A DNA stretch of 54,320 nucleotides from a virus: positions 1-54,320 of the IMG/VR virus record IMGVR_UViG_3300031673_000059, one strand, 5' to 3'. Below are positions 1,785 to 36,139 of the stretch, in pieces. The notes under the pieces are model-generated. The model saw only the letters and a program-made list of their open reading frames with translations, did no database searches and had not been told where the DNA came from. Position 1 is the stretch's first letter, and the number at the start of each line of letters is the position of its first letter. The position numbers and the translations under genes are program-made.

Positions 1785-1792
1785 GTTCTACC
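1785..1792 (-). promoter_or_regulatory. GGTAGAAC -10-like motif, 27 nt upstream of ATG 1757
   Basis: Plus strand reads gttctacc. The TAG inside the motif is the stop of the frame-B ORF ending at 1788. Confidence 0.45.
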
Positions 1793-2231
1793 GGCAGCGC
1801 CAGGCTGCGCGCATGGTCTCTGGACGAACCATGTCGAAGTTCTCTCTGTGTCGCCTTATGCACGGCTCCCTGCGGAGAACACGGAGGCGGGTCGTCCAAC
1901 CGCCACCACGAGCAACATACGCATCAGTGATGCTGTATATGGCGTTCAGGTAAGCCCCACGAACTGGCGGCTCGGCGACGAAGTCGAACGTCATGATCTG
2001 GTAATCGACAACGCCGCCCTGCTCATCAATCGATCCACGACCGCTTTGAGAGATACCGACGCTCGAACCTTCGTTGAGCGCAGCCCGGAACCGCTCAGCG
2101 GCCTCGCCACGCAGCTCGAAGGCCGACGTCATCGTGCTCGCCCACGATTGGGTTCCGGTGACCGGGTTCTGGTTCGACGCAGCACCAGTAGGTGCCTCGG
2201 GCAGCGCGACTCTTACCTCGTCTGCTGATGT
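1788..2231 (-). CDS. +1-frame continuation of the gp23-like module of the FGE fusion protein (frameshift, error or pseudogene)
   Basis: The C-terminal part of track ORF 1788..2516 (...SADEVRVALPEAPTGAAS...MTSAFELRGEAAERFRAAL...) continues the order of conserved blocks seen in the capsid paralogs. Over the same DNA, the tail of frame A is Arg-rich and junk-like. Confidence 0.4.
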   Translation of the reverse strand, partial: TSADEVRVALPEAPTGAASNQNPVTGTQSWASTMTSAFELRGEAAERFRAALNEGSSVGISQSGRGSIDEQGGVVDYQIMTFDFVAEPPVRGAYLNAIYSITDAYVARGGGWTTRLRVLRREPCIRRHRENFDMVRPETMRAAWRCR

Positions 2232-5200
2232 TGTCGAGGTAGAAAAGCATTCCGGCTCGGTTGTCGAGTGGTTGAAGAGGGGGCGGCCAGAAGGGGTTGG
2301 AGAGTCCCTGTCTGACGAGGGGTCCTGCGAACCGGAGGAATGCTGAGTCGCTGCCCCCCTCAGCGACGACTCGGTCCATGTGTCGCTGGTGGTTTTCGAG
2401 GAGCATGCCTGTAAGAGCTCTTGTGAAACTGTCGTCGACTCCTTCGAGGAGGGGGGCCCATTTCTGGGTGTAGCGGTTGACGATGCTCTGAAACTCTGGT
2501 GCCTCAGCAGCGGCACCTCCAGGCCGCTCTTGGAGTAACTCCTGCCTCAACCTCGTCATGGTAGCGAGGATCTCTGATGGTTGAATCGGCGGTGTCGCAG
2601 ACCCAGTTGAGTCCTCGGACGACGCGACCGTCGTCCACACCTCGCTCGGGGGTGCCGTCGTCGATGGTGGCGCAGAAGACGTTGAGTCCGAGTAACTCGG
2701 GTCCGGGAGCGCCGCCGACGATCCGGACCCACTCAGAAAATCCGAGTCACCTCGCTCTCCAGGCTGACCTGGGCCCGAGCCAGCAACGATGTTCACCGGC
2801 TCGGATGATCCTGGAGTCGAAGGCCTCTCCATGCTGGTAGGACTGCCAGTTACCTCCTCGGACGGTGCAGGATCCGAACCCCATCTGCTCGATGGCTCGG
2901 TCCATGACGGATCGTAGGTAGATTCGACCGCTGGTGTTCCGGGGGGCGATTCCGAAGGTTCCCTCGACGATGTGTGTGAGTGGTCTTGGGTTGACCATGA
3001 TGGCCGCCGCTTCTGCTCTTGTGATGTTTGGGCCGTAGAGGGCCCTAACCCAAAAGGGACGTCATCGGGCCCTCCATGCCGCCCGTGGACCGGCCGTAAA
3101 GTCGGGGAGTTCGGGATCGAGCCACCAGGAATCGGCCCGATCCCACCCCTGCCAGTCTCCGCCTCTGAGCGTGTAGGCGTCGATCCCGATGTAGTGCGCG
3201 ACTTCGGGCGAGACTCGCATCCAGTTGGCTGGGTTTCTGACGGTGAGCTCGTAGATTCGTTGGGCCGCCGCCGCGACCCTGGCGATAAAGGGAGGTCACC
3301 TTGCTCTCCAGGCGCACCTGAGTCCGACGTCTCTGACGTCGTTTCCGGCACCTCGCTGCCGTCTGGCGACGAAGCCCTCGTCCTCTCCTCTGAGGACCTT
3401 AGGTCGATCCTCGGCGGTGATTGCGATGTAGGGGGCGTAGATGAACCCGGTGTCAAGGACTGTGTCGCCCTTGTAGCCGAAGAGGAACCCCGTCCTGTCT
3501 CCGTCCTGGGACTGGTCAACATGGATGAGGCGGCCGCCGTCTTGGGATGAGAATGGGGGCTCTGGGTGGACCGTCCACCCAGGCCTGATCCGAAACCCGA
3601 GTCACCTCGCTCTCCAGGCCCCTCGGAGTCCGAGTCCGTGGTCGAGGTCCCAGCCCCAGACTCTGCCGGTGTCGAGGCCTGGGTCGGCGAGTTCGAGCCA
3701 GCAGATCCCCCGGACCCTGATCCGGGGCTGGAAGGGTCCGAGCCGACCGGCGTTGCGTCCTCCGCGTAGGGGCCCAACCCCATCCCGAGGTCGGAGTAAG
3801 CGTCCATGTGCTCGTAGTCAGCGTACCGGTCGAGCAGCTGCCCGGAAGGAGACATGAGACTGTCGCTCAAGGACCCCGAGCTGGTCTCGCCATCCTGGAG
3901 ATCCCTCTGGGGGTCGTCCGACATTCCAACTGATGGACTTGAGGATGTATGGGATACCGTCCTGGTAGAAGATGCCTCCGAGGTAGCAGCGTCCGAGTTC
4001 GCCGAGCTCGATCTCGCTGCATGGGTTGACCCCGAAGGCTCCGTAGGGTCCGAGCTAATGAACCCTGGCTCTCCAGGCTGTCCTGACGCCTCCTCGGTCA
4101 ATGTTGTGGCCCCTGAAGGAGGCGCCTCGCTCCCAATCCCGGGGGGACTCATCCCAGGAGTAGCTTCGGATGAGGAATCGATGATGTTGCATGCGCTCTC
4201 GGACGGAGAGGCCTGCGTAGGGTCCGAGCTAGGCTCTCCAGGCTGGTCGGAGTCCTGCGTCCTGGGCCCCTCCGACTGCTCGTCCGATGTTGCTGACGGG
4301 GAACGGATAGGTCCCGCCGTTGAGATGATATGTAGGAGGGAATCCGTAGTCAGGAACGGGGTTGATGTAGGGTCCGGGCGTTGCTCGCCGTTAGCGATGT
4401 AGCCATTCTCGGGCAGGTCCTCGACCCCTCGAACCCACTGGCACCTGGTCCATTCGAAGACGTTCCCGCAGTTGTCGTGGAGCCCCCAGTTGTTCGGATC
4501 CTTCAGGCCAACTGCCTTGTGCCCGTCCTCAAACTCGCCGCCGAACCAGGCGATCTTCTTTAGGTCCTCATCCGTGTCGCCGTTGGGGTAGCGCGTAGTC
4601 GCTCCGGCCTTAGTCGCGTATTCCCACATCGCCTCAGAGGGGAGCTGAAAGCCGACCCGCTCACCCTTCTCGTTCCAGAGCCAGGCCTGGTAGGCCGCCT
4701 CGACCTCTGCTGAGAACACCAGCGCTTGGTTCTGGACAGGCAGAGGCATGATGTCCGTGTTGACCTGTTGCTCCCACTCTCTCCACGTCAGCGTGAAGGT
4801 CTGATCTGAGTGTGTGAACTTGCAGTTGGTCAACCGTGCAAAGTCCAGCCGGTTGATGAAGTCCTCGACCTCACGGCACCGATCCCAGGAGACGCTCTCA
4901 ACAGGGTGCTCCCCCCACCTGCGCCCATCAGAGTCCTTCAACTCCATGCGGGTCGCAGGCCCGAACGGCGCGTCACCCATGCGGGTGACGTTAAGCCCCT
5001 CCTCGACCATTTCGGTCGTAGGGAAGTGACTCGGGAACTCACGTGTGACGCGGTACCACTCACGCCCGGTCCACGGGTACTTCGCCATCAGGAATGGCTC
5101 GTCGAAGGTCCGCTTGACCTGTTGCTGGGCCGTCTCATCATCAGGGTCCGCAGTGGGACCCATCATGAACTCACCCGAAGGGATCAGAACGAAGATCATC

Positions 5201-5400
5201 CCCGTCGTCTTGTGCTGATACTCAGCCAGGCCTTGGGAGTTGAGCCCGAGACACGAGAAGAGCTCAGTCTCCTCTACGCGCAGTCCGTAGGGGACGTCGT
5301 TTCCGGCCCTGCGGATTCGCGTGATGTAGTCGCCGCGATCGGCCGCGTCGCCTGTAGCCTGCCAACGGCGTTCTGCTGCTCTTAAAGCGGCGTCTGACAT
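2095..5400 (-). CDS. FGE-sulfatase (SUMF1/EgtB/PvdO-type) domain protein with long S/P/T/G/E/D-rich disordered tether and C-terminal gp23-like N-arm module
   Basis: ORF track, 1101 aa. FGE signatures: IPSGEFMMGP, HPVESVSWDRC, LPSEAMWEYATKAG, NNWGLHDNCGNVFEWT. The C-terminal QKWAPLLEGVDD..LLENHQRH..LQPLDNRAGMLFYLD matches the T4 gp23 N-terminal region and the paralogs at 33.8-35.8 kb. AGGAG lies upstream of ATG 5400. Confidence 0.8.
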   Translation of the reverse strand: MSDAALRAAERRWQATGDAADRGDYITRIRRAGNDVPYGLRVEETELFSCLGLNSQGLAEYQHKTTGMIFVLIPSGEFMMGPTADPDDETAQQQVKRTFDEPFLMAKYPWTGREWYRVTREFPSHFPTTEMVEEGLNVTRMGDAPFGPATRMELKDSDGRRWGEHPVESVSWDRCREVEDFINRLDFARLTNCKFTHSDQTFTLTWREWEQQVNTDIMPLPVQNQALVFSAEVEAAYQAWLWNEKGERVGFQLPSEAMWEYATKAGATTRYPNGDTDEDLKKIAWFGGEFEDGHKAVGLKDPNNWGLHDNCGNVFEWTRCQWVRGVEDLPENGYIANGEQRPDPTSTPFLTTDSLLHIISTAGPIRSPSATSDEQSEGPRTQDSDQPGEPSSDPTQASPSESACNIIDSSSEATPGMSPPGIGSEAPPSGATTLTEEASGQPGEPGFISSDPTEPSGSTHAARSSSANSDAATSEASSTRTVSHTSSSPSVGMSDDPQRDLQDGETSSGSLSDSLMSPSGQLLDRYADYEHMDAYSDLGMGLGPYAEDATPVGSDPSSPGSGSGGSAGSNSPTQASTPAESGAGTSTTDSDSEGPGERGDSGFGSGLGGRSTQSPHSHPKTAAASSMLTSPRTETGRGSSSATRATQSLTPGSSTPPTSQSPPRIDLRSSEERTRASSPDGSEVPETTSETSDSGAPGEQGDLPLSPGSRRRPNESTSSPSETQPTGCESRPKSRTTSGSTPTRSEAETGRGGIGPIPGGSIPNSPTLRPVHGRHGGPDDVPFGLGPSTAQTSQEQKRRPSWSTQDHSHTSSREPSESPPGTPAVESTYDPSWTEPSSRWGSDPAPSEEVTGSPTSMERPSTPGSSEPVNIVAGSGPGQPGERGDSDFLSGSGSSAALPDPSYSDSTSSAPPSTTAPPSEVWTTVASSEDSTGSATPPIQPSEILATMTRLRQELLQERPGGAAAEAPEFQSIVNRYTQKWAPLLEGVDDSFTRALTGMLLENHQRHMDRVVAEGGSDSAFLRFAGPLVRQGLSNPFWPPPLQPLDNRAGMLFYLDNISRRGKSRAARGTYWCCVEPEPGHRNPIVGEHDDVGLRAAWRGR

Positions 5401-5418
5401 AATGATCTCCTGGTCTCT

Positions 5419-5427
5419 GTTTTACCC
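5419..5427 (-). promoter_or_regulatory. GGGTAAAAC -10-like motif, 18-nt leader with AGGAG before ATG 5400
   Basis: Plus strand reads gttttaccc, in the 28-nt gap between the ATPase and the FGE gene. Confidence 0.45.
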
Positions 5428-5428
5428 A

Positions 5429-6817
5429 TCAGACTCCAAAGAGCGCATGGAAGAAGCTCTTGGGCTGGTAGGCCTTCTTCTCGGGCTGCTTGGGCGTGAC
5501 CTTGACATTGGGCGAACTGGGACCACTCGACGGATCGAGTCGCAGCAGCTCATCACCGCTCATGGGGCCCCGAAGGAAGCTGTAGGCCCACCGGATCTTG
5601 GTCACAGCGTGCTCCCCGCTCTTCTTCAGGATCAGGAAGTGCCGCTGAGGAATCGACGTCAGGGTCGACGTGTCCACGTTCCGGCTGGAAAGCTCCTTCT
5701 TGAGGTCCCGGGCGCAGTCCCGGGGCCGCAGCTTGCCGAGGAACCAAGTGCCGACGTTGGTCAGCGCCTTGTAGTCCATGTCGTTAGGGTTCTGAGTCCC
5801 GATCAGCATACCGATGCCCTGGGCCCGGCCCTGAGCGAGGAGCGTGCAGATCGGCTTCTTGGTCGGCGGGTTGAGCGGGTAGGGCGGGAGGTAGCCCCGC
5901 GCCTCGTCCAAGACGACCAGCAGCTTCAGCTTGTTGCTGGCCGGCGCCCGGAACATGTAGTCCACGATCGCCGACAGCAGCATGCCAGCGAAGAACTGCC
6001 GCTCACCCTCGTCCAGGTGTCGGAGGGAGAACACCGAGACCTTAGGCTTGCCGGTGCCCACGTAGCTCTCGATCGAGAGCGGAGAACCGTCGAGCCACTT
6101 GGTCGCTTGCCGCCGGAAGCCGACGATCGACCGAGCGATCTGCATCCGCTTCTTCTTGGGGAAGAAGTCGTCGAGGCTCAGGCCATCGATCTCCTTCAGA
6201 TTGGCAGGGGGCGTGTTCAGAGCGGCGGACCACGTGTCCAGACCGGCCGCCTGACCCGAGGCCCAGGCGTCGACCATCACGTCCGTCAGGAAGACGTTCG
6301 CGGGGTCGGTCATGGGGTCGGCGGTGTGGCCGATCGCGTTGAGGACTCCGGCGACCAGGGCCGAGGCCCGGTCCCGCAGCGCTTGCTCACTGTAGTTGCC
6401 GGTGGGAGCGTCGAAGGACGCCAGGACGTTGACGGACTGGCCGCCGCCTCGGGTCTTGCCGGGGGCGTAGATCGTGACATCGGCGGCCGACTTCCACCGC
6501 TGGACGTTGGGAGCCAGGTGGCCGAGCTCCTTCCGAGCTCGGTCAGCGATCTCGCCCGGGTCCTTGCCGTCCTCCGCCCAGGGAGCGAATTCGCCGGCGG
6601 CCAGACCGGGGAAGGCCAGGGCCAGATTGGTGAGGTCGCCCTTGGGGTCAATGATGATCGCGGACGCGCCGCTCAGCACGGCCTCTTCGATCGTGGCGAC
6701 GGTGGCGCCGGTCTTGCCGGAGCCGGTCCGACCCAGGACCACGCCGTGGGTGGTAAGGTCGGCGGGGTCGATCGTGAGAGGAGTTCCGTCGTTCTTGGTG
6801 CCGATCAACATGCTCAT
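5429..6817 (-). CDS. HerA/FtsK-superfamily P-loop ATPase, DUF853 (YjgR)-like
   Basis: Walker A is VLGRTGSGKTG, Walker B is LLVVLDEARG, followed by GIGMLIGTQNPNDMDY. The start is moved to ATG 6817 (MSMLIGT...) because GGTAGAAA sits exactly 5 nt upstream. The track ORF starts at 6856. Confidence 0.8.
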   Translation of the reverse strand: MSMLIGTKNDGTPLTIDPADLTTHGVVLGRTGSGKTGATVATIEEAVLSGASAIIIDPKGDLTNLALAFPGLAAGEFAPWAEDGKDPGEIADRARKELGHLAPNVQRWKSAADVTIYAPGKTRGGGQSVNVLASFDAPTGNYSEQALRDRASALVAGVLNAIGHTADPMTDPANVFLTDVMVDAWASGQAAGLDTWSAALNTPPANLKEIDGLSLDDFFPKKKRMQIARSIVGFRRQATKWLDGSPLSIESYVGTGKPKVSVFSLRHLDEGERQFFAGMLLSAIVDYMFRAPASNKLKLLVVLDEARGYLPPYPLNPPTKKPICTLLAQGRAQGIGMLIGTQNPNDMDYKALTNVGTWFLGKLRPRDCARDLKKELSSRNVDTSTLTSIPQRHFLILKKSGEHAVTKIRWAYSFLRGPMSGDELLRLDPSSGPSSPNVKVTPKQPEKKAYQPKSFFHALFGV

Positions 6818-6822
6818 GGTTG

Positions 6823-6830
6823 TTTCTACC
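6823..6830 (-). promoter_or_regulatory. GGTAGAAA, 5 nt, ATG 6817
   Basis: Plus strand reads cat ggttg tttctacc. Confidence 0.55.
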
Positions 6831-6909
6831 TTTCTTAGCCTTGTGGCTTCAACCACTACGCCGCCCTGCCACGATTCATCGAACTCGGGTATCAGTAAGC
6901 AGGTGACTT

Positions 6910-7440
6910 ATGAATCGATTCTTTGACGAACTGAAGGAGGCCCGTGACCAGGCCGCAGGCAAGAGTCGATTCAATCCCGACAAGAACCTTCGTCTCACCT
7001 ACGTAAGGGAAGAGCCCAAGGGGTGGCCGCTGACCAGGCCAGCTACTCCAGCCGAGTGGGCCCACGTCCTCAAGGTGATGATCATGCGGCGAGTTCCCAG
7101 GCATGAGCCTATTCATAGGACCAAGCTGATCCAATACGTAAGCGGCGACCTGGTGTCCGCAAGCTCCGCCGGAAGGCTCTACATGGGCCCGGAGTCGTGG
7201 GGCATGAGAAGCGTACATCTCGTGCTTGACCGACAGATGATCGGCAAGGACAAGATCCTGAGAACCGCTCCGACGATGGATGACCCGGAAATGGCCTGGA
7301 GTGCTCCTGCCATCTACAGGACCGAGCACGCTGATGGTTGGCTCGGGAGAGTGCCTGTTACCGTGAACGCCCTCGTAGACTTTCTCCCGGTGACCAACGT
7401 CCTAGATTTGATCGTACAGGCGCTCCTGGACGACGAATAG
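6910..7440 (+). CDS. hypothetical protein; C-terminal NVLDLIVQALLDDE
   Basis: ORF track, 176 aa, with protein-like composition. Confidence 0.65.
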   Translation: MNRFFDELKEARDQAAGKSRFNPDKNLRLTYVREEPKGWPLTRPATPAEWAHVLKVMIMRRVPRHEPIHRTKLIQYVSGDLVSASSAGRLYMGPESWGMRSVHLVLDRQMIGKDKILRTAPTMDDPEMAWSAPAIYRTEHADGWLGRVPVTVNALVDFLPVTNVLDLIVQALLDDE

Positions 7441-7633
7441 TAACTTCGCCGAACTGCACGATCGTTCTGGTTGTTTCGATGACCTGCCAGGATGATGCTG
7501 CAGGAAGAGATAGAACCTGTCCATTCACCGCGTCGAGTGCATCAGACTCCGTGTCGTAGTGGCCGCCTGAGCAGAGCATGTTGCCTCGCTCGCTAAAAAG
7601 CAGAAGCTCAAATCGCTTACGCGGATTAGACAA
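7358..7633 (-). CDS. hypothetical small protein
   Basis: ORF track, 91 aa. The first ~65 aa look protein-like. The tail overlaps the convergent gene 6910..7440 and looks like read-on. Confidence 0.4.
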   Translation of the reverse strand: MSNPRKRFELLLFSERGNMLCSGGHYDTESDALDAVNGQVLSLPAASSWQVIETTRTIVQFGEVTIRRPGAPVRSNLGRWSPGESLRGRSR

Positions 7634-7644
7634 GGGTCACGCTC

Positions 7645-8076
7645 TCAGATGTCAGCTAATCGATCGAGGATGGTGGTCGTCTTGGCGATTGGTCTTGGAA
7701 CAGAGTCGGATACGAATAACGGTGAATCGAAGTTAACGGTCATGCCGCCCTCAGGCATTCGGCCGAAGGCCTCGGCCCGCCTGATCACTTGCTGGAGGTC
7801 CCACGCTATCTTGCCCCCTTTCGTAGGGCAACCAGAGATTCCGTGGGAGTGATTGGGGTGGGTGAGCTCGGGAAAGCACAGCTGCCGGGCCTTGTAGAGC
7901 GCATCTTCGCAGGACTTAGAAGCAGCACTGTCAGACAGCTTGTTCCAGAACTGCTCTTGAATGATGTTGAACTGGCCGATGTGAACCCGCGCGAATAGGT
8001 CGAGCGCCGTGACGACCAGCCTGGCCTGCTCCGGCGTCATTGTGACTTGGACGAAGAAGTTCTCGTTTCCGCTCAT
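7645..8076 (-). CDS. hypothetical protein; C-terminal TILDRLADI
   Basis: ORF track, 143 aa. The ATG is 5 nt downstream of GGTATAAA. Confidence 0.7.
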   Translation of the reverse strand: MSGNENFFVQVTMTPEQARLVVTALDLFARVHIGQFNIIQEQFWNKLSDSAASKSCEDALYKARQLCFPELTHPNHSHGISGCPTKGGKIAWDLQQVIRRAEAFGRMPEGGMTVNFDSPLFVSDSVPRPIAKTTTILDRLADI

Positions 8077-18429: not shown

Positions 18430-19611
18430 CTAGTCTATTGATCCGACGATCCGATCGAGCACACCGACCATGTCGAGCATTGTCCCTAGGTATTCGATCG
18501 CCTTGTCTTTCCCCCAGGCGTGGAGCAGACACTCCCTCTCCTTGGGGCCGCCCTTGCAGGTTACCCCGTCCTTCTCGCCGAGCGCCTTGACTACGCTCGA
18601 ATCGAACGCCTCGTTGTTCTTCCTCTGCATCTTGATGTTGATGACCCTCTTCCGAGGGCCGATGGTGATGGTGTAGTCGCCGTAGGCGATGGCGTACCAA
18701 GGCTCGTTTTTGAACTGGTCCTTGTAGTAGCCGTTGGGGAGCTCCGTCCTCGTCTTGTTGGCCAGTCCGACCGCCTCGAAGATCTCGTTGAAGAGCTTGG
18801 CGTGCCGGAGCTTGATCGGGTCGACCGGGACCTCGATTTCCTGACTCCGCCCTGCGTCCACCGCCTCCCAGGTCCACTCGCCGTCGACCTTGTTCTGGAT
18901 CCAGACGCTGACCTCATCGCCGGGAACCTGGGGAGGGATAGGGGACGCAGGGTGCCCAGTCTGGTACCAGGACTTCTTGCCGGCCGCCGCGTGGGCTTCG
19001 AGCGCGTCTAGGATCTCCTGGGAGTGTCTCTTTACCTCGTAGAGGGCGTTCTCGGCCATGTTCTTGAGAACTGCCATCCGGTCGATGGCGTCAGGGGCGT
19101 CCATCATGCCCCATTCCGAGCCCGGGTCTGACACCCGCCTCTTCCAGTTGGGCTCCCACTGACCGATGGTTTTCAGGAGGCCGAGGAGCAGAGGACCCTT
19201 CTTGGGCTCGGCTACCCCGCCATCGAGAAGCGGAAAGACCAGCATCCCGATCGGGCCTCCGGCTCCGAGTTCGGCCAGCCTAGCGACAGCAGTGTTCCGA
19301 TCTGCCTCAGGGGTCAAGGGGGTGACAAGCGCTCTGAGCTGAGAGACCTCTTCGTCGAAGGCGGCCTTGTTGGCCCGCCAGGTCTTGAGGACCGTGCCGT
19401 TGAACCAGTCGGCCACCCTCTCGGAGAGACCCTCGCCCGGCTTCCGCATGAGCATGAAGAGGTTCCCGCCGTCGGCGGCCATATGGACCCCGAACCGGTC
19501 GCAGCCCTTGCACTTGAAGTTGCTCTGCGACATCCCGCCGAAGGAACCACCGTGACCCTGCCACTTAGGCGCGGCGCAGATACAGGACGGTACGTTCTCT
19601 GGCAACGCCAT
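18430..19611 (-). CDS. hypothetical protein; C-terminal GVLDRIVGSID
   Basis: ORF track, 393 aa. TAATG overlap with the NADAR gene. Confidence 0.7.
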   Translation of the reverse strand: MALPENVPSCICAAPKWQGHGGSFGGMSQSNFKCKGCDRFGVHMAADGGNLFMLMRKPGEGLSERVADWFNGTVLKTWRANKAAFDEEVSQLRALVTPLTPEADRNTAVARLAELGAGGPIGMLVFPLLDGGVAEPKKGPLLLGLLKTIGQWEPNWKRRVSDPGSEWGMMDAPDAIDRMAVLKNMAENALYEVKRHSQEILDALEAHAAAGKKSWYQTGHPASPIPPQVPGDEVSVWIQNKVDGEWTWEAVDAGRSQEIEVPVDPIKLRHAKLFNEIFEAVGLANKTRTELPNGYYKDQFKNEPWYAIAYGDYTITIGPRKRVINIKMQRKNNEAFDSSVVKALGEKDGVTCKGGPKERECLLHAWGKDKAIEYLGTMLDMVGVLDRIVGSID

Positions 19612-30828: not shown

Positions 30829-30918
30829 ACAACTCCTCCGAGTACCACAGGGTAAATCAAATCCTTCCTCCGTGGCAGCAACGCGGTTAAAAACGACACG
30901 GTGACTAAGGCCGGTGCG

Positions 30919-33485: not shown

Positions 33486-33703
33486 TGGACCACCACGCAC
33501 TGCTCTATTCCCACGCTGTCGTCCAGGCCGCCCGGGTCGGTCTGCCTCTGCACTGGGAGGAAGACATCATGACCTTCACCGCCCCGGGGCATGACGACTG
33601 GATCATCGGTTGGTGCCCCAACACCTTCAATCAGCTGCGGATCAAGGTGATGAGGTTTCACCAACCTGAGGACGCCTACCCGGACATCAAGCGGGAGTGT
33701 TGA
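33482..33703 (+). CDS. hypothetical protein (ends at in-frame TGA 33701; see extension)
   Basis: ORF track, 73 aa. ATGA-type overlap. Confidence 0.6.
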   Translation: MMDHHALLYSHAVVQAARVGLPLHWEEDIMTFTAPGHDDWIIGWCPNTFNQLRIKVMRFHQPEDAYPDIKREC

Positions 33704-33844
33704 ACCTACGACTGGGAGGTGGGCGCCAGGCTGGTTGCCCAACTGATCGCGTCCAAGGACCCACTAGGGCTGGTCGAGTCGTGGGAGACGCCGGACAACT
33801 GCGAGCTGCCAGGATATGGCCGGGTGCGGATCGACAACGTCTAG
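33704..33844 (+). other. 46 in-frame coding-like codons after TGA 33701 (readthrough / selenocysteine / sequencing error candidate)
   Basis: TYDWEVGARLVAQLIASKDPLGLVESWETPDNCELPGYGRVRIDNV*. Most third positions are G/C, as in genes here. There is no usable start codon. It ends in a 4-nt overlap (ctag) with the stop of the convergent capsid gene. Confidence 0.4.
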
Positions 33845-34779
33845 TAGGGCGTTCCGGCCAACGTGATCAGAGATGCGAACTCCGGCCTCACGAGTGTGAT
33901 TTTGTGCCGGGTGCGGATCGCGCGCCGAAGAGTCTTGTCGGCCGGATCTACGAAGTTCGGTGTGATCTCGACCATGGTGTAAGGACTGTAGATGACGCAC
34001 GTATCCATTACGCTGTCGTCTGCCTGATACCAGGCCAGCAGCTTCCCTACGGGGAAGAGGGGATCCAGGTAGACGCCCCTGCCGTCAACCTCGCCGATTT
34101 TGGCGATGCCGTCTGCCTCTTGGACGTCAAAGCCAAGCTGGGCCAGCATCGCCGCGTTGCCAATGACCCTGTTTGCCGGGTTCCGCTGAGACCCCCGATG
34201 GACGATGTGGGCCGCCCTGTCCAGAGCTTCTTTGAGATCACCGCCGGCGGCCAACTCGATCTTGTTGTTGTCCAGGACGCCGTTCAGGATCGTTCCTACG
34301 ATCTCCCGAGCCACCTCGGTCAGGAGTGCGTCGATGTTCAGAGCCCCCTCTTCGTTGACGTCGGTGTGTGCCTTGCAGCGCCTCGACTCCGCTCGGATCT
34401 CTTGAGGGATGATGTCCAGCACGACGGAAGGCACCTTGACCTTCCTCTCGACGCCGTCTTGAATCAGGGTCGCCTCCTCCATCTCCCCGAAGCGCGGCTT
34501 GTAGTAGTAGACGATCCCGATCGGCCCAGTCATCGGCTGCACCGCGCAGAGGTCCGGGAGCACGTGGGTCCGGACCGAGGCCTTGAGGTTATCGAAGAGA
34601 TCCTCCGTCCACGAGCCGAGGACCAATGCCCGGGTCTCCTCGACGAGACGCTGAAGGTGTCTGCTCTGGTTCTCGCAGACCATGGCAGCGATGTTCGACC
34701 TGTAGCCGTCCTCTAGGCCCCACTTGGTGCGGAGCTTCTCTAGATAGCTCTCGTCCGGCATACCATCAAGCTGAGTCAT
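33841..34779 (-). CDS. T4 gp23/gp24-family capsid-fold protein, compact paralog A
   Basis: LRTKWGLEDGY..MVCENQSRH, DLCAVQPMTGPIGIVYYYK, ANRVIGNAAML and GVYLDPLFP..LAWY....MDTCVIYSPY match the remembered T4 gp23 blocks (KWKPLLEG..IFENQ, VQPMNSPTGQVF, YRVYIDQY..GYKGP..DAGIYYAPY). The start is ATG 34779 (AGGAGG 4 nt upstream). Confidence 0.85.
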   Translation of the reverse strand: MTQLDGMPDESYLEKLRTKWGLEDGYRSNIAAMVCENQSRHLQRLVEETRALVLGSWTEDLFDNLKASVRTHVLPDLCAVQPMTGPIGIVYYYKPRFGEMEEATLIQDGVERKVKVPSVVLDIIPQEIRAESRRCKAHTDVNEEGALNIDALLTEVAREIVGTILNGVLDNNKIELAAGGDLKEALDRAAHIVHRGSQRNPANRVIGNAAMLAQLGFDVQEADGIAKIGEVDGRGVYLDPLFPVGKLLAWYQADDSVMDTCVIYSPYTMVEITPNFVDPADKTLRRAIRTRHKITLVRPEFASLITLAGTPY

Positions 34780-34824
34780 AGTTCCTCCTGATGCGGAGGG
34801 TACCACAACTACATCAGATTTACA

Positions 34825-35778
34825 TCAGACAATCTGCGCCAACCGCTCCAGGACGTTGACCTTAACCACCTGGATGTGGCTCGGATGGGCCACATGGATG
34901 TTGTGGTTCAGGTAGATCGCGAAGTTGTGGCGGCCGTCCATCGGATCGAGCGGGTAGCAGAAGGGCGAGTAGACGACCGGCGTGTCTACGATGCTTGGTC
35001 CCATGTACCAGAGCATTACTTCACCGTCAGGGAACAGCGGATCCAGGTAGACGTGCATCCTCTGCTTGTAGACGCCTACCTTCTTCACCAGGCCGGTATC
35101 AGTCGTGTCCCACTCGTCCGGATCCTCCGGCGAGAAAAGCTCCAACATCTTCTCATTGCCGATCACGTGATTGGCCGGGCCCCGCATGCAGCGCTTGTGG
35201 ACCATCTGCGAGGCGCGAAGGATATCAGTGTCGAACGCGGTGTAGGTCGACTCCAACACATTGCCGGCGGCCGATCCCGCGCCGTGCATGACGCCCAACA
35301 CCTCGCGGATGGACGCCAGCATGACCGAGTCGAACACGCTGTCGATGAGCGCGAAGTTTCCTGGGTAGATCCTGACGCCGAGTCGCCTGATGGAGGCTTG
35401 GACGTTGACCGTCTGCAGGTTCAACGTCATCGTCGGGATCGATGTGCTCCCAGGAGTAGTGGGTCCGGCCGGCGTGGTGATGTTGGTTTGGCCGTAGAAG
35501 CCGATGGTGTCTGATGGCCTCCGTAGGGGCTGGACCGACACCATGTCGATCAGGGGGCAGTGCACCCAGGCCTTCACGAGAGCTCGGTAGAACTTGTCCT
35601 TCCAGTTGTCGCCATAGGTCTCTTCCAGATCATCGGGGATCAGCGATGAGCAAAGGACGTTGGCCTGGTTCTCCAACAGTAGAGCGATGACGCCAGAGCG
35701 CTTGTGATGGCCGGGGAGGTAACCCTCCCACTTCTCGGTCAGAGCCTTGATGTGGTCGTTGTCCAACATGGTGGGCAT
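34825..35778 (-). CDS. T4 gp23/gp24-family capsid-fold protein, compact paralog B; C-terminal NVLERLAQIV
   Basis: TEKWEGYLPG..LLLENQANV, MVSVQPLRRPSDTIGFYG, ANHVIGNEKML and MHVYLDPLFPDGEVMLWYMGPSIVDTPVVYSPF. Confidence 0.85.
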   Translation of the reverse strand: MPTMLDNDHIKALTEKWEGYLPGHHKRSGVIALLLENQANVLCSSLIPDDLEETYGDNWKDKFYRALVKAWVHCPLIDMVSVQPLRRPSDTIGFYGQTNITTPAGPTTPGSTSIPTMTLNLQTVNVQASIRRLGVRIYPGNFALIDSVFDSVMLASIREVLGVMHGAGSAAGNVLESTYTAFDTDILRASQMVHKRCMRGPANHVIGNEKMLELFSPEDPDEWDTTDTGLVKKVGVYKQRMHVYLDPLFPDGEVMLWYMGPSIVDTPVVYSPFCYPLDPMDGRHNFAIYLNHNIHVAHPSHIQVVKVNVLERLAQIV

Positions 35779-35803
35779 AGTACCACAAGCCCACCCAAGG
35801 TCA

Positions 35804-36139
35804 TCAGTTGTGTCGATGCTCGGCGATTTTCTCCTTGTTCTCGCTCATGAGCTGCCACTGCCGGCGGTCCGCCTCGTCGTTGCGGTCCAGGCGCGCGTTG
35901 ATAACCGCCCGATCCTCCTTGAGGGCCTGGATCGCCTTCTCGTTCTCACTAAGGCGCGAGTGGATGCCACCGAAGACGTAGCTGATGACCGCGATTGAGC
36001 CAGGAATGAAGACCAGCGCGAGAAGCGCGAGGAGTCCCTTGACCGCCCACTGAGGGATATGTCCAGGGTCCGATTGCTGGACCACAATCGGCGCCGGGGC
36101 CTGAGGATCAAAAGGGGCTGGGTCGTCTGGGGGCATCAC
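35804..36139 (-). CDS. single-pass membrane protein with coiled coil
   Basis: The TM segment is GLLALLALVFIPGSIAVISYVFGG, followed by a charged helix. Confidence 0.65.
   Translation of the reverse strand: MMPPDDPAPFDPQAPAPIVVQQSDPGHIPQWAVKGLLALLALVFIPGSIAVISYVFGGIHSRLSENEKAIQALKEDRAVINARLDRNDEADRRQWQLMSENKEKIAEHRHN

Follow-up and report, generated by a model that had tools for sequence, protein, structure and literature searches.

The 54,320-nucleotide window analysed here is the whole of IMG/VR virus record IMGVR_UViG_3300031673_000059 and carries, in tandem on its minus strand, two genes related to gp23, phage T4's major capsid protein (MCP). These genes, designated A and B, are very probably extra paralogs and not the main MCP gene of their phage. 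They represent a conserved, insertion-less and independently evolved group of MCP paralogs in uncultivated T4-like jumbo phages. Compared with T4 gp23, their products are about 200 amino acids (aa) shorter, lack the E-loop insertion domain and are not encoded beside portal, protease or scaffold genes, and a relative of the A/B phage has a separate long gp23-type MCP in its genome. The two genes are as follows.

33841-34779, minus strand: gene A, compact Gp23-family paralog of 312 aa, the conserved A-type, with its ATG at 34779 (an alternative GTG start at 34806 would give 321 aa, 9 aa longer)
34825-35778, minus strand: gene B, compact Gp23-family paralog of 317 aa with a Pfam Gp23 match, fast-evolving and nearly orphan

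The evidence for their status as extra genes comes from relatives that share the local gene order, namely hemerythrin, DHH, small open reading frames (ORFs) and compact Gp23, followed on the opposite strand by Lar, DUF4326, ClpS, Nuc_deoxyri_tr2, NUDIX and AAA_33. The syntenic A-type homologs P0006 and P0009 are 53% and about 48-49% identical to A and lie on contigs of 182 kb and 359 kb; related phage genomes reach at least 369 kb, the length of the longest contig of one cluster. On a relative's contig of 203,521 bp, Ga0210057_1000066, an A-type gene identical to P0009 is located at about 174-175 kb, with an FGE homolog about 29 kb from it, as in the window. In a metagenome scan the same contig also gave a 477-aa Gp23 at about 7-9 kb, about 166 kb from the A-type gene. 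By tblastn, the genes directly before this long form are those of a Peptidase_S77 prohead protease and of a homolog of a 277-aa module protein (p277). A genuine head module, with portal, S77 protease and a Gp23 of about 477 aa containing the insertion domain, is encoded far off in a relative. Since the protease-MCP module is separate from the A-type gene on one contig, A and B are best regarded as additional paralogs in this lineage; the co-occurrence of long MCP and A-type gene refers to this one relative's contig and not to the window's own genome. The preliminary description of the window had proposed that the pair may be the MCP and vertex protein of a distant T4-like virion, against which the relative's own head module speaks. 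It had also envisaged a standard head module elsewhere, and such a module was found in the syntenic relative, though not in the window's own genome.

The long form, and not the compact form, occupies the head-module position in relatives, a position that A and B do not hold in the window. In the related locus L090 the module reads Portal_T4, 277 aa, 416 aa, S77 protease and Gp23, with gp13 and the sheath protein further on, and in L092 it reads S77, Gp23, sheath and gp19, with no portal match recorded there. Contigs with long-form MCPs and a GC content of 59-63% were found in the window's own sample series, and compact Gp23 forms are present in IMG/VR. The S77 protease of Ga0210057_1000066 carries an intein and is 54% identical to the L090 protease; prohead protease (Peptidase_S77) genes with Hint/LAGLIDADG inteins were recorded in the related head modules at 7155-9986 in L090, 6679-8550 in L092 and 6982-9786 in L100, which belongs to this same contig.

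The window itself is a fragment of an uncultivated T4-like jumbo phage genome. It constitutes the entire contig, no longer contig bearing A or B was found, and no terminal overlap was found between its ends. About 60 of its ORFs were scanned with Pfam and/or PHROGs, and a family profile hidden Markov model (HMM) was run over its 1266 stop-to-stop segments in six frames. Neither a portal, prohead protease, scaffold or terminase gene nor an additional full-length Gp23 was found in these scans, in agreement with the earlier statement that no portal, protease or scaffold is recognisable in 54 kb. Because the window is a genome fragment, this absence is uninformative about the whole genome. The fragmentary state of the window and the distant head module of the relative dissolve the puzzle of an MCP and vertex pair without a head module. 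A megablast search of 20 kb against phage genomes gave no match and the sole tblastn match of B was to one uncultured 595-kb phage, indicating that there is no cultured reference.

Fold, origin and possible expression signals of the compact proteins

Gp23 (PF07068) was the sole Pfam match of either protein, at 41.7 bits for A (E value of 1.3e-10) and 31.3 bits for B (E value of 1.9e-7), both above the curated gathering threshold of 24.4 bits. Both also matched PHROG 138 (major head protein). The two proteins are 27% identical to each other over 314 aa (E value of 2e-27), and both ORFs are intact, with a GC content at third codon positions (GC3) of 0.79-0.83, as in bona fide genes.

In an alignment with relatives of 475-485 aa, A and B lack an E-loop insertion of about 110 aa and three short segments. 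In the long forms this missing block is flanked by the first strand of the E-loop (QPMTGPIGG.AFYRP) and by the strand that returns (IPEVQLDI), the same E-loop position as the variable insertion domain of T4-superfamily MCPs (PMC4621102). The blocks kept are the N-terminal KW...ENQ...RL.EE, QPMTGP and the C-terminal blocks, confirming the earlier report of gp23 landmarks from the N-terminus to the C-terminus. The likeness to T4 gp23 thus comprises the family, the HK97 fold, the N-terminal helices (KW..LLEG..ENQ), the L-x-E motif, QPM.GP and the C-terminal blocks. When A was used as a phmmer query, 16 library representatives, mostly of 290-350 aa, were matched end to end at E values of 1e-30 or below, and a second tier of Gp23 proteins of 460-650 aa was aligned to A only in the N-terminal and C-terminal stretches.

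Both proteins are predicted to fold as complete HK97-fold subunits with a gp23-type N-terminal helical region. The AlphaFold 2 (AF2) models have a predicted local distance difference test score (pLDDT) of 90.0 for A and 87.3 for B and a predicted template modelling score (pTM) of 0.86 for each, and comprise three or four helices at the N-terminus, an E-loop that is a long plain hairpin (aa 89-127 in B), the spine helix and the remaining HK97 core. Neither model has an extra domain on the E-loop, so that the E-loop insertion looked for as a mark of the major capsid protein is absent from both; the plain hairpin and the gap in the alignment bear out the presumed loss of the insertion domain. The earlier assignment of 33841-35778 to a tandem gp23/gp24-family pair, for which a Gp23 hmmscan and structure prediction had been suggested as checks, was upheld in that both minus-strand ORFs are Gp23-family members by Pfam and PHROG 138 and both yield complete HK97 folds.

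Foldseek was run with the A model. The best PDB matches were T4 gp23/gp24 chains (E value of 5e-10) and the best BFVD predicted-structure matches were T4-type MCPs, with template modelling scores up to 0.70; a PDB sequence search with A gave no match. HK97 gp5 and encapsulins were among the structural matches and A, after its presumed trimming to about 265 aa, would resemble them in size, but they ranked below the T4 MCPs (encapsulin chains first at rank 32, E value of 4.5e-7), and A and B have neither an encapsulin Pfam match nor an adjacent cargo gene. A reduced or minimal insertion domain is known to work in gp23-type proteins of the Sinorhizobium phages PhiM12 and PhiM9 (PMC4621102), but their MCPs are sole and lie in head modules, whereas A and B are additional beside a long MCP. 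The pair illustrates the duplication of a capsid protein followed by its trimming to a minimal HK97 core.

The nearest non-compact relatives of A are the clade's own MCPs of 475-485 aa. BLAST comparisons of A with two of these long MCPs (L090 and L100) gave 37-40% identity, rising to 83% in the C-terminal 35 aa. For B the values are 31-34% against long MCPs and 26-32% against the compact paralogs compared; overall, compact paralogs and the clade's long MCP are about 27-40% identical. The T4 gp23 query (phmmer) detected A and B at E values of about 1e-3 and other compact forms down to 5e-10, and the T4 gp24 query reached A only at an E value of 1.2, with B absent among the matches at E values of 10 or below. 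T4 gp24 is without the long gp23-type N-terminal region retained by A and B, and it possesses an insertion domain, which they do not. Its gene is close to gp23, whereas in the relative about 166 kb separate the compact paralog from the MCP. The failure of the gp24 query and the gp23-type N-terminus show that the pair is not orthologous to gp24 and does not belong to the ancient gp24 lineage, but arose by later duplication of the clade MCP. On the basis of these comparisons, A and B are lineage-specific MCP paralogs that formed by duplication followed by loss of the insertion domain and the three short segments.

The compact family is dynamic. A-type genes are 48-66% identical among relatives, whereas the second copies share no more than 26-40% with any sequence set against them, and copy number varies from one to two plus fragments. 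The second copies are B, a 276-aa gene that lies upstream of the A-type gene of L009, a 347-aa gene that lies downstream of the A-type gene of L094 (36% identical to A and to its own neighbour) and a 337-aa gene in L115. B had only 4 distant matches among 5.8 billion proteins and would be a rapidly diverging tandem duplicate of the compact A-type unit. L096 and L100 belong to one 203.5-kb contig, on which the compact and the long Gp23 gene agree over their last 29 codons at 90% of all nucleotides and 79% of third positions, compared with 38-59% third-position identity between A and the long MCPs of other contigs. This similarity of 3' ends within one genome is a hint, from few sites, of gene conversion or co-evolution.

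Upstream of both genes, sequence elements were found that may act in their expression; a further copy of TGTGGTAC elsewhere in the window is listed with them.

34782-34822, minus strand: conserved element TGATG..TGATGTAGTTGTGGTACC, then CCTCC(N6)GGAGG overlapping the Shine-Dalgarno (SD) sequence of A
35780-35787, minus strand: second copy of TGTGGTAC, abutting the ATG of B
30842-30849, minus strand: further copy of TGTGGTAC

The TGATG..TGATGTAGTTGTGGTACC element also precedes the first compact Gp23 gene in L093, L094, L096, L009 and L115, and TGTGGTAC occurs only three times in the window. By analogy with the regulation of T4 soc and e, the upstream element may be a phage-specific promoter combined with a translational hairpin. 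The SD-sequestering hairpin upstream of A was weakly supported by RNAalifold (-1.85 kcal/mol, one compensatory pair). The T4 late promoter TATAAATA was found neither in the window nor in related head modules, and since it is missing from the head modules too, its absence says nothing about the timing of A and B.

Candidate roles of A and B

We favour a role for the conserved A-type protein as a minor subunit of the prohead or shell, and consider the chances of this to be about even; a place at the penton specifically is possible but somewhat doubtful. The A-type protein would enter the prohead via its N-terminal region, lose that region to the prohead protease through a cut at the conserved RL.E|E site, which would leave about 265 aa, and co-assemble with the long MCP as a minor shell subunit, for which a vertex (penton) or other special lattice position would be most plausible. 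Like T4 gp24, it is a diverged extra MCP paralog, and a penton role is the most plausible analogy; the resemblance would be functional, with an independent origin.

The RL.E(E/D) motif is found in the alignment at homologous N-terminal positions of A, the long MCPs and B (as DLEE). The T4 protease cleaves after L/I-x-E, and the motif is located where T4 gp23 is cut, after L-x-E. The N-terminal region and motif shared with the long forms suggest that A and B are probably recruited to the prohead and trimmed to about 265 aa, a length that matches a minimal HK97 core. In L090, L092 and L100 no second Gp23 gene was found closer than 10 kb to the long MCP, so any vertex paralog in these three relatives must be encoded elsewhere. 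A dedicated vertex or special-position subunit encoded at a distal locus would be the simplest role in keeping with these sequences, and the conservation of the A-type with synteny is what is expected of a functional protein. In jumbo T4-like phages the vertex or minor shell proteins often escape identification, and a conserved insertion-less MCP paralog at a distance from the head module provides a concrete candidate. In phAPEC6, a vertex protein was not found in silico (PMC7247149).

Several observations weigh against this assignment. It is built on sequence and predicted folds, and the co-occurrence of A-type gene and long MCP was seen in a single relative. The locus lies amid small unknown or accessory genes (Lar, ClpS, NUDIX) and not structural ones, the upstream motif of A and B was not found in the sampled head-module loci, and the variable copy number and fast-diverging second copies fit arms-race genes better than core shell proteins. 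Furthermore, there need not be a separate vertex protein at all: many T4-superfamily phages, PhiM9 among them, lack gp24 and make their pentons of gp23 itself (PMC4621102).

The same copy-number variation and divergence would suit an alternative that we regard as unlikely, in which A and/or B are non-virion mimics of the MCP, encoded in an accessory or anti-defence region, that would titrate or mask host immune sensors of it. Such MCP-sensing defences are widespread, as with Avs7 and Dsr1 (PMC13581612), and the neighbouring genes encode Lar restriction alleviation, ClpS, NUDIX and NADAR proteins, with a Tad4-family gene in L009. However, both A and B have a complete, assembly-competent fold that is confidently predicted, they have the N-terminal region and RL.EE motif in common with the long MCP, the A-type is fairly well conserved, and a precedent for an MCP decoy was not found.

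The separate HK97-fold compartment that the preliminary description had offered as an alternative received nothing in its favour, with T4-type MCPs as the best structures and the RL.EE region, a putative prohead-protease site, shared with the long MCP. In an extended form, which we judge improbable, A and B would be a compartment or special capsomers that recruit proteins bearing a WR.R peptide and/or MCP N-terminal fragments, such as isoforms of the FGE protein discussed below, much as encapsulins take up their cargo. In the same phages about 10-18 ORF ends in each genome do carry a G.R..WR.R-stop peptide, with conservation at the protein level, and an FGE ORF terminates in a gp23 N-terminal fragment; the insertion domain is the domain lost from the compact forms, and a fragment of it follows the FGE ORF. 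Yet the WR.R-bearing ORFs are 29 kb distant and themselves MCP-derived, the neighbours of A and B are small unknown proteins without a shared C-terminus (so that no adjacent cargo, as for encapsulins, was found), the encapsulin signature is absent, and A and B keep an N-terminal region related to scaffold and protease.

It is very improbable that A and B are the virion's only capsid genes, a main MCP and vertex protein displaced from the head module. Intact tandem Gp23-family HK97 folds, as in gp23/gp24, and the minimal E-loop insertions of PhiM12 and PhiM9 (PMC4621102) would allow it, but the syntenic relative has its 477-aa Gp23 behind a prohead protease on the A-type contig, long-form MCP contigs of matching GC occur in the window's sample series, B is nearly orphan and fast-evolving, and neither protein is gp24-like. 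Hardly credible is the view that the genes are decaying, functionless duplicates, to which the Gp23-derived fragments scattered near the FGE gene and the orphan state of B might point, given the intact ORFs, the GC3 values, the confident folds and an A-type that is syntenic and 48-66% conserved in several genomes together with its upstream element.

The FGE-sulfatase gene and its -1 frame

Pieces of the MCP are reused elsewhere in this lineage, an N-terminal fragment being found at the end of a lectin-like protein. This protein is encoded by the FGE ORF, the features of which are as follows.

2095-5400, minus strand: FGE-sulfatase ORF of 1101 aa (Pfam FGE-sulfatase, 70.2 bits), ending ..LRAAWRGR-stop
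4393-5193 (aa 70-336), minus strand: lectin-like FGE domain of this ORF
2221-2490 (aa ~971-1060), minus strand: gp23 N-terminal-like region of this ORF (pairwise E value of 2e-4; family HMM E value of 6e-6)
2504-4390, minus strand: -1-frame array in the FGE linker, made up of 8 segments of 53-104 codons that follow one another in one frame
GGAGGTGATTCGGATTTTCC: candidate slip region with T-run and SD in the FGE ORF array
1788-2094, minus strand: +1-frame continuation after the FGE stop, resembling an MCP insertion-domain segment and ending ..RAAWRCR-stop

The linker between the FGE domain and the MCP-like end is rich in S/T/P/G/D/E and of low complexity, with PGE.GDS repeats. Twelve related ORFs (P0228-P0239) share the N-terminal FGE part, making 13 of 636-1733 aa with the window's own, and the full architecture of FGE, linker and MCP-like end was read in P0228, P0232 and P0234. 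In P0228 and P0232 the terminal MCP-like region is unmistakable (KWAPLL.G..LE.ESRHLQ...QPMLGPVGG.AFYRP). The same architecture in relatives indicates that the FGE-gp23 fusion is real and conserved, and the third partial copy previously described as fused to the FGE protein was recovered by both the pairwise comparison and the family HMM. The resemblance of the +1-frame ORF to the insertion domain had its best HMM support in relative L149 (E value of 0.004). Its end (MVRPE..) was considered as a gp23 C-terminus, and this was rejected because the HMM places the ORF on the insertion-domain segment. The sequence of these FGE-borne MCP fragments suggests that they may target or anchor the protein to capsids. 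In its binding domain, long flexible linker and capsid-related module the ORF recalls the T4 Hoc-like capsid fibres (PMC10385173).

Upstream of the FGE ORF, at 5429-6856 on the minus strand of the window, a HerA/FtsK-like ATPase (DUF87) is encoded, a neighbour conserved in every relative examined (L148 1264-2955, L149 1037-2755, L146 4288-5973). The ATPase also weakly matches a PHROG labelled terminase large subunit.

The C-terminal peptide of the FGE ORF (..R..AWR.R-stop) occurs nine times in the window, all at 1788-4318 on the minus strand and in three frames. One of the two compact paralogs had been said to carry it, but A ends ...LITLAGTPY and B ends ...LERLAQIV. In the window array, six segments end in ..AWR.R plus 0-3 residues and a stop. 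The other two have AWRA-stop and a degenerate AAARPVR-stop as their ends, and the segments at 3299-3601 and 3065-3295 are gp23-like (HMM E values of 3e-7 and 1e-4). Arrays were also found in L146 (6930-7526), L148 (about 4000-7190) and L149 (about 4000-7790). The number of -1-frame segments per linker was 8 in the window, 2 in L146, 14 in L148 and 16 in L149, with 43-119 codons overall, and nearly all end G.R..WR.R-stop, apart from near-variants such as AWRA-, WRAK- and WRVG-stop and the one AAARPVR-stop.

Peptide statistics were compiled from 39 instances, of which 32 lie in the -1 frame and the others close main-frame and +1-frame ORFs. CGN as well as AGR codons occur at each of the three Arg positions, the Trp never changes although the main-frame residue that overlaps it does (P/S/L/I/H/R), and the stops are TAG (17), TGA (19) and TAA (3). 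The mixed Arg codons, invariant Trp and mixed stops point to selection on a translated peptide and not on a nucleic-acid motif. In the linker -1 frame 13 and 16 stops were observed, compared with 50 and 54 expected from shuffled main-frame codons; in the window linker both frames are depleted of stops (P values of 0.0015 and <0.0005) and the third is not. The ratio of nonsynonymous to synonymous substitution rates (dN/dS) between L148 and L149 was, for the linker, 0.53 (-1 frame), 0.75 (main frame) and 1.11 (+1 frame), and in the FGE domain it was 0.12 in the main frame and about 1.8-1.9 in the other two. The main and -1 frames of the linker are under constraint, and the statistical signs that the FGE gene is translated in two frames, over 0.4-3.7 kb, are strong.

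A main-frame X|XXY run follows 31 of the 32 motifs of the -1 frame at a distance of up to 18 nt (T|TTT 15, C|CCT 11, C|CCG 3, G|GGT 2). In 22 of the 32 the run begins exactly 10 nt past the first base of the stop, where the background expectation is 0.32, and the slip-prone run is preceded, at about 10 nt (range 7-19), by an SD-like GGAGG. Most candidate slip sites are single-codon X|XXY and not canonical heptamers. From this pattern we tentatively suggest, at somewhat less than an even chance, that the FGE linker may be a serial programmed -1 frameshift array. A main-frame ribosome could slip at each site, read one unit and stop at the next WR.R-stop, and the outcome would be nested FGE-linker isoforms sharing one C-terminal peptide. 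The SD-like GGAGG, slip-prone run and open -1 frame recall dnaX-type -1 frameshifting, although the FGE array differs from it in having up to 16 serial sites in one gene, mostly X|XXY, with products all ending WR.R. We know of no arrangement of serial -1 sites with a common WR.R end. If the suggestion is true, serial programmed frameshifting would be a new way of making protein families from one gene, and the array would be a warning to annotators in that gene callers see only the longest frame.

Other causes of the array were considered and rejected. The frame relations are common to four independent assemblies, which excludes assembly error; TAG, TGA and TAA all end units, which excludes stop-codon reassignment; and a DNA- or RNA-level motif is incompatible with the CGN and AGR codons and with an invariant Trp over a varying main-frame residue. 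A diversity-generating retroelement was dismissed, as no long template/variable (TR/VR) repeat was found, nor a reverse transcriptase among the scanned ORFs. Independent small genes were dismissed because half of the units (4 of the 8 in the window) contain no ATG, GTG or TTG.

A broader proposal would join the two subjects in an MCP-derived toolkit, with A and B as special capsomers or a distinct shell docking the FGE protein, which would have an MCP N-terminal fragment, possibly with an insertion-domain fragment, and, through 2-16 serial -1 frameshift sites, nested isoforms that differ in linker length and C-terminal module but all end WR.R. We consider this combination unlikely. Its frameshift-array part, though itself tentative, is much better supported than the functional link to A and B.

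Other genes of the window

Upstream of B, ten co-directional genes comprise DHH and nine small genes, the last of which is the following.

35804-36136, minus strand: predicted membrane protein of 110 aa without a family match

These are small unknown proteins, two with obvious hydrophobic helices, much as the preliminary description had it in speaking of small unknowns and membrane proteins. Elsewhere in the window the Pfam and PHROG scans matched FGE-sulfatase, HerA/FtsK-type ATPase, DEAD helicase, tail-collar, glutamine-synthetase-like, NADAR and DNA ligase proteins, and in addition a polynucleotide-kinase-like ATPase, NUDIX, ClpS, Lar, hemerythrin and DHH. Two long minus-strand ORFs had no Pfam or PHROG match: one of 867 aa at 51434-54037, the open frame of which runs 5' to the contig end (open to 54319), and one of 393 aa at 18430-19611. 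Long antisense ORFs were observed on the plus strand at 33697-34716 (339 aa, opposite A) and at 5402-6838 (478 aa, opposite the ATPase gene), and these are probably artefacts of high-GC codon bias and not genes.

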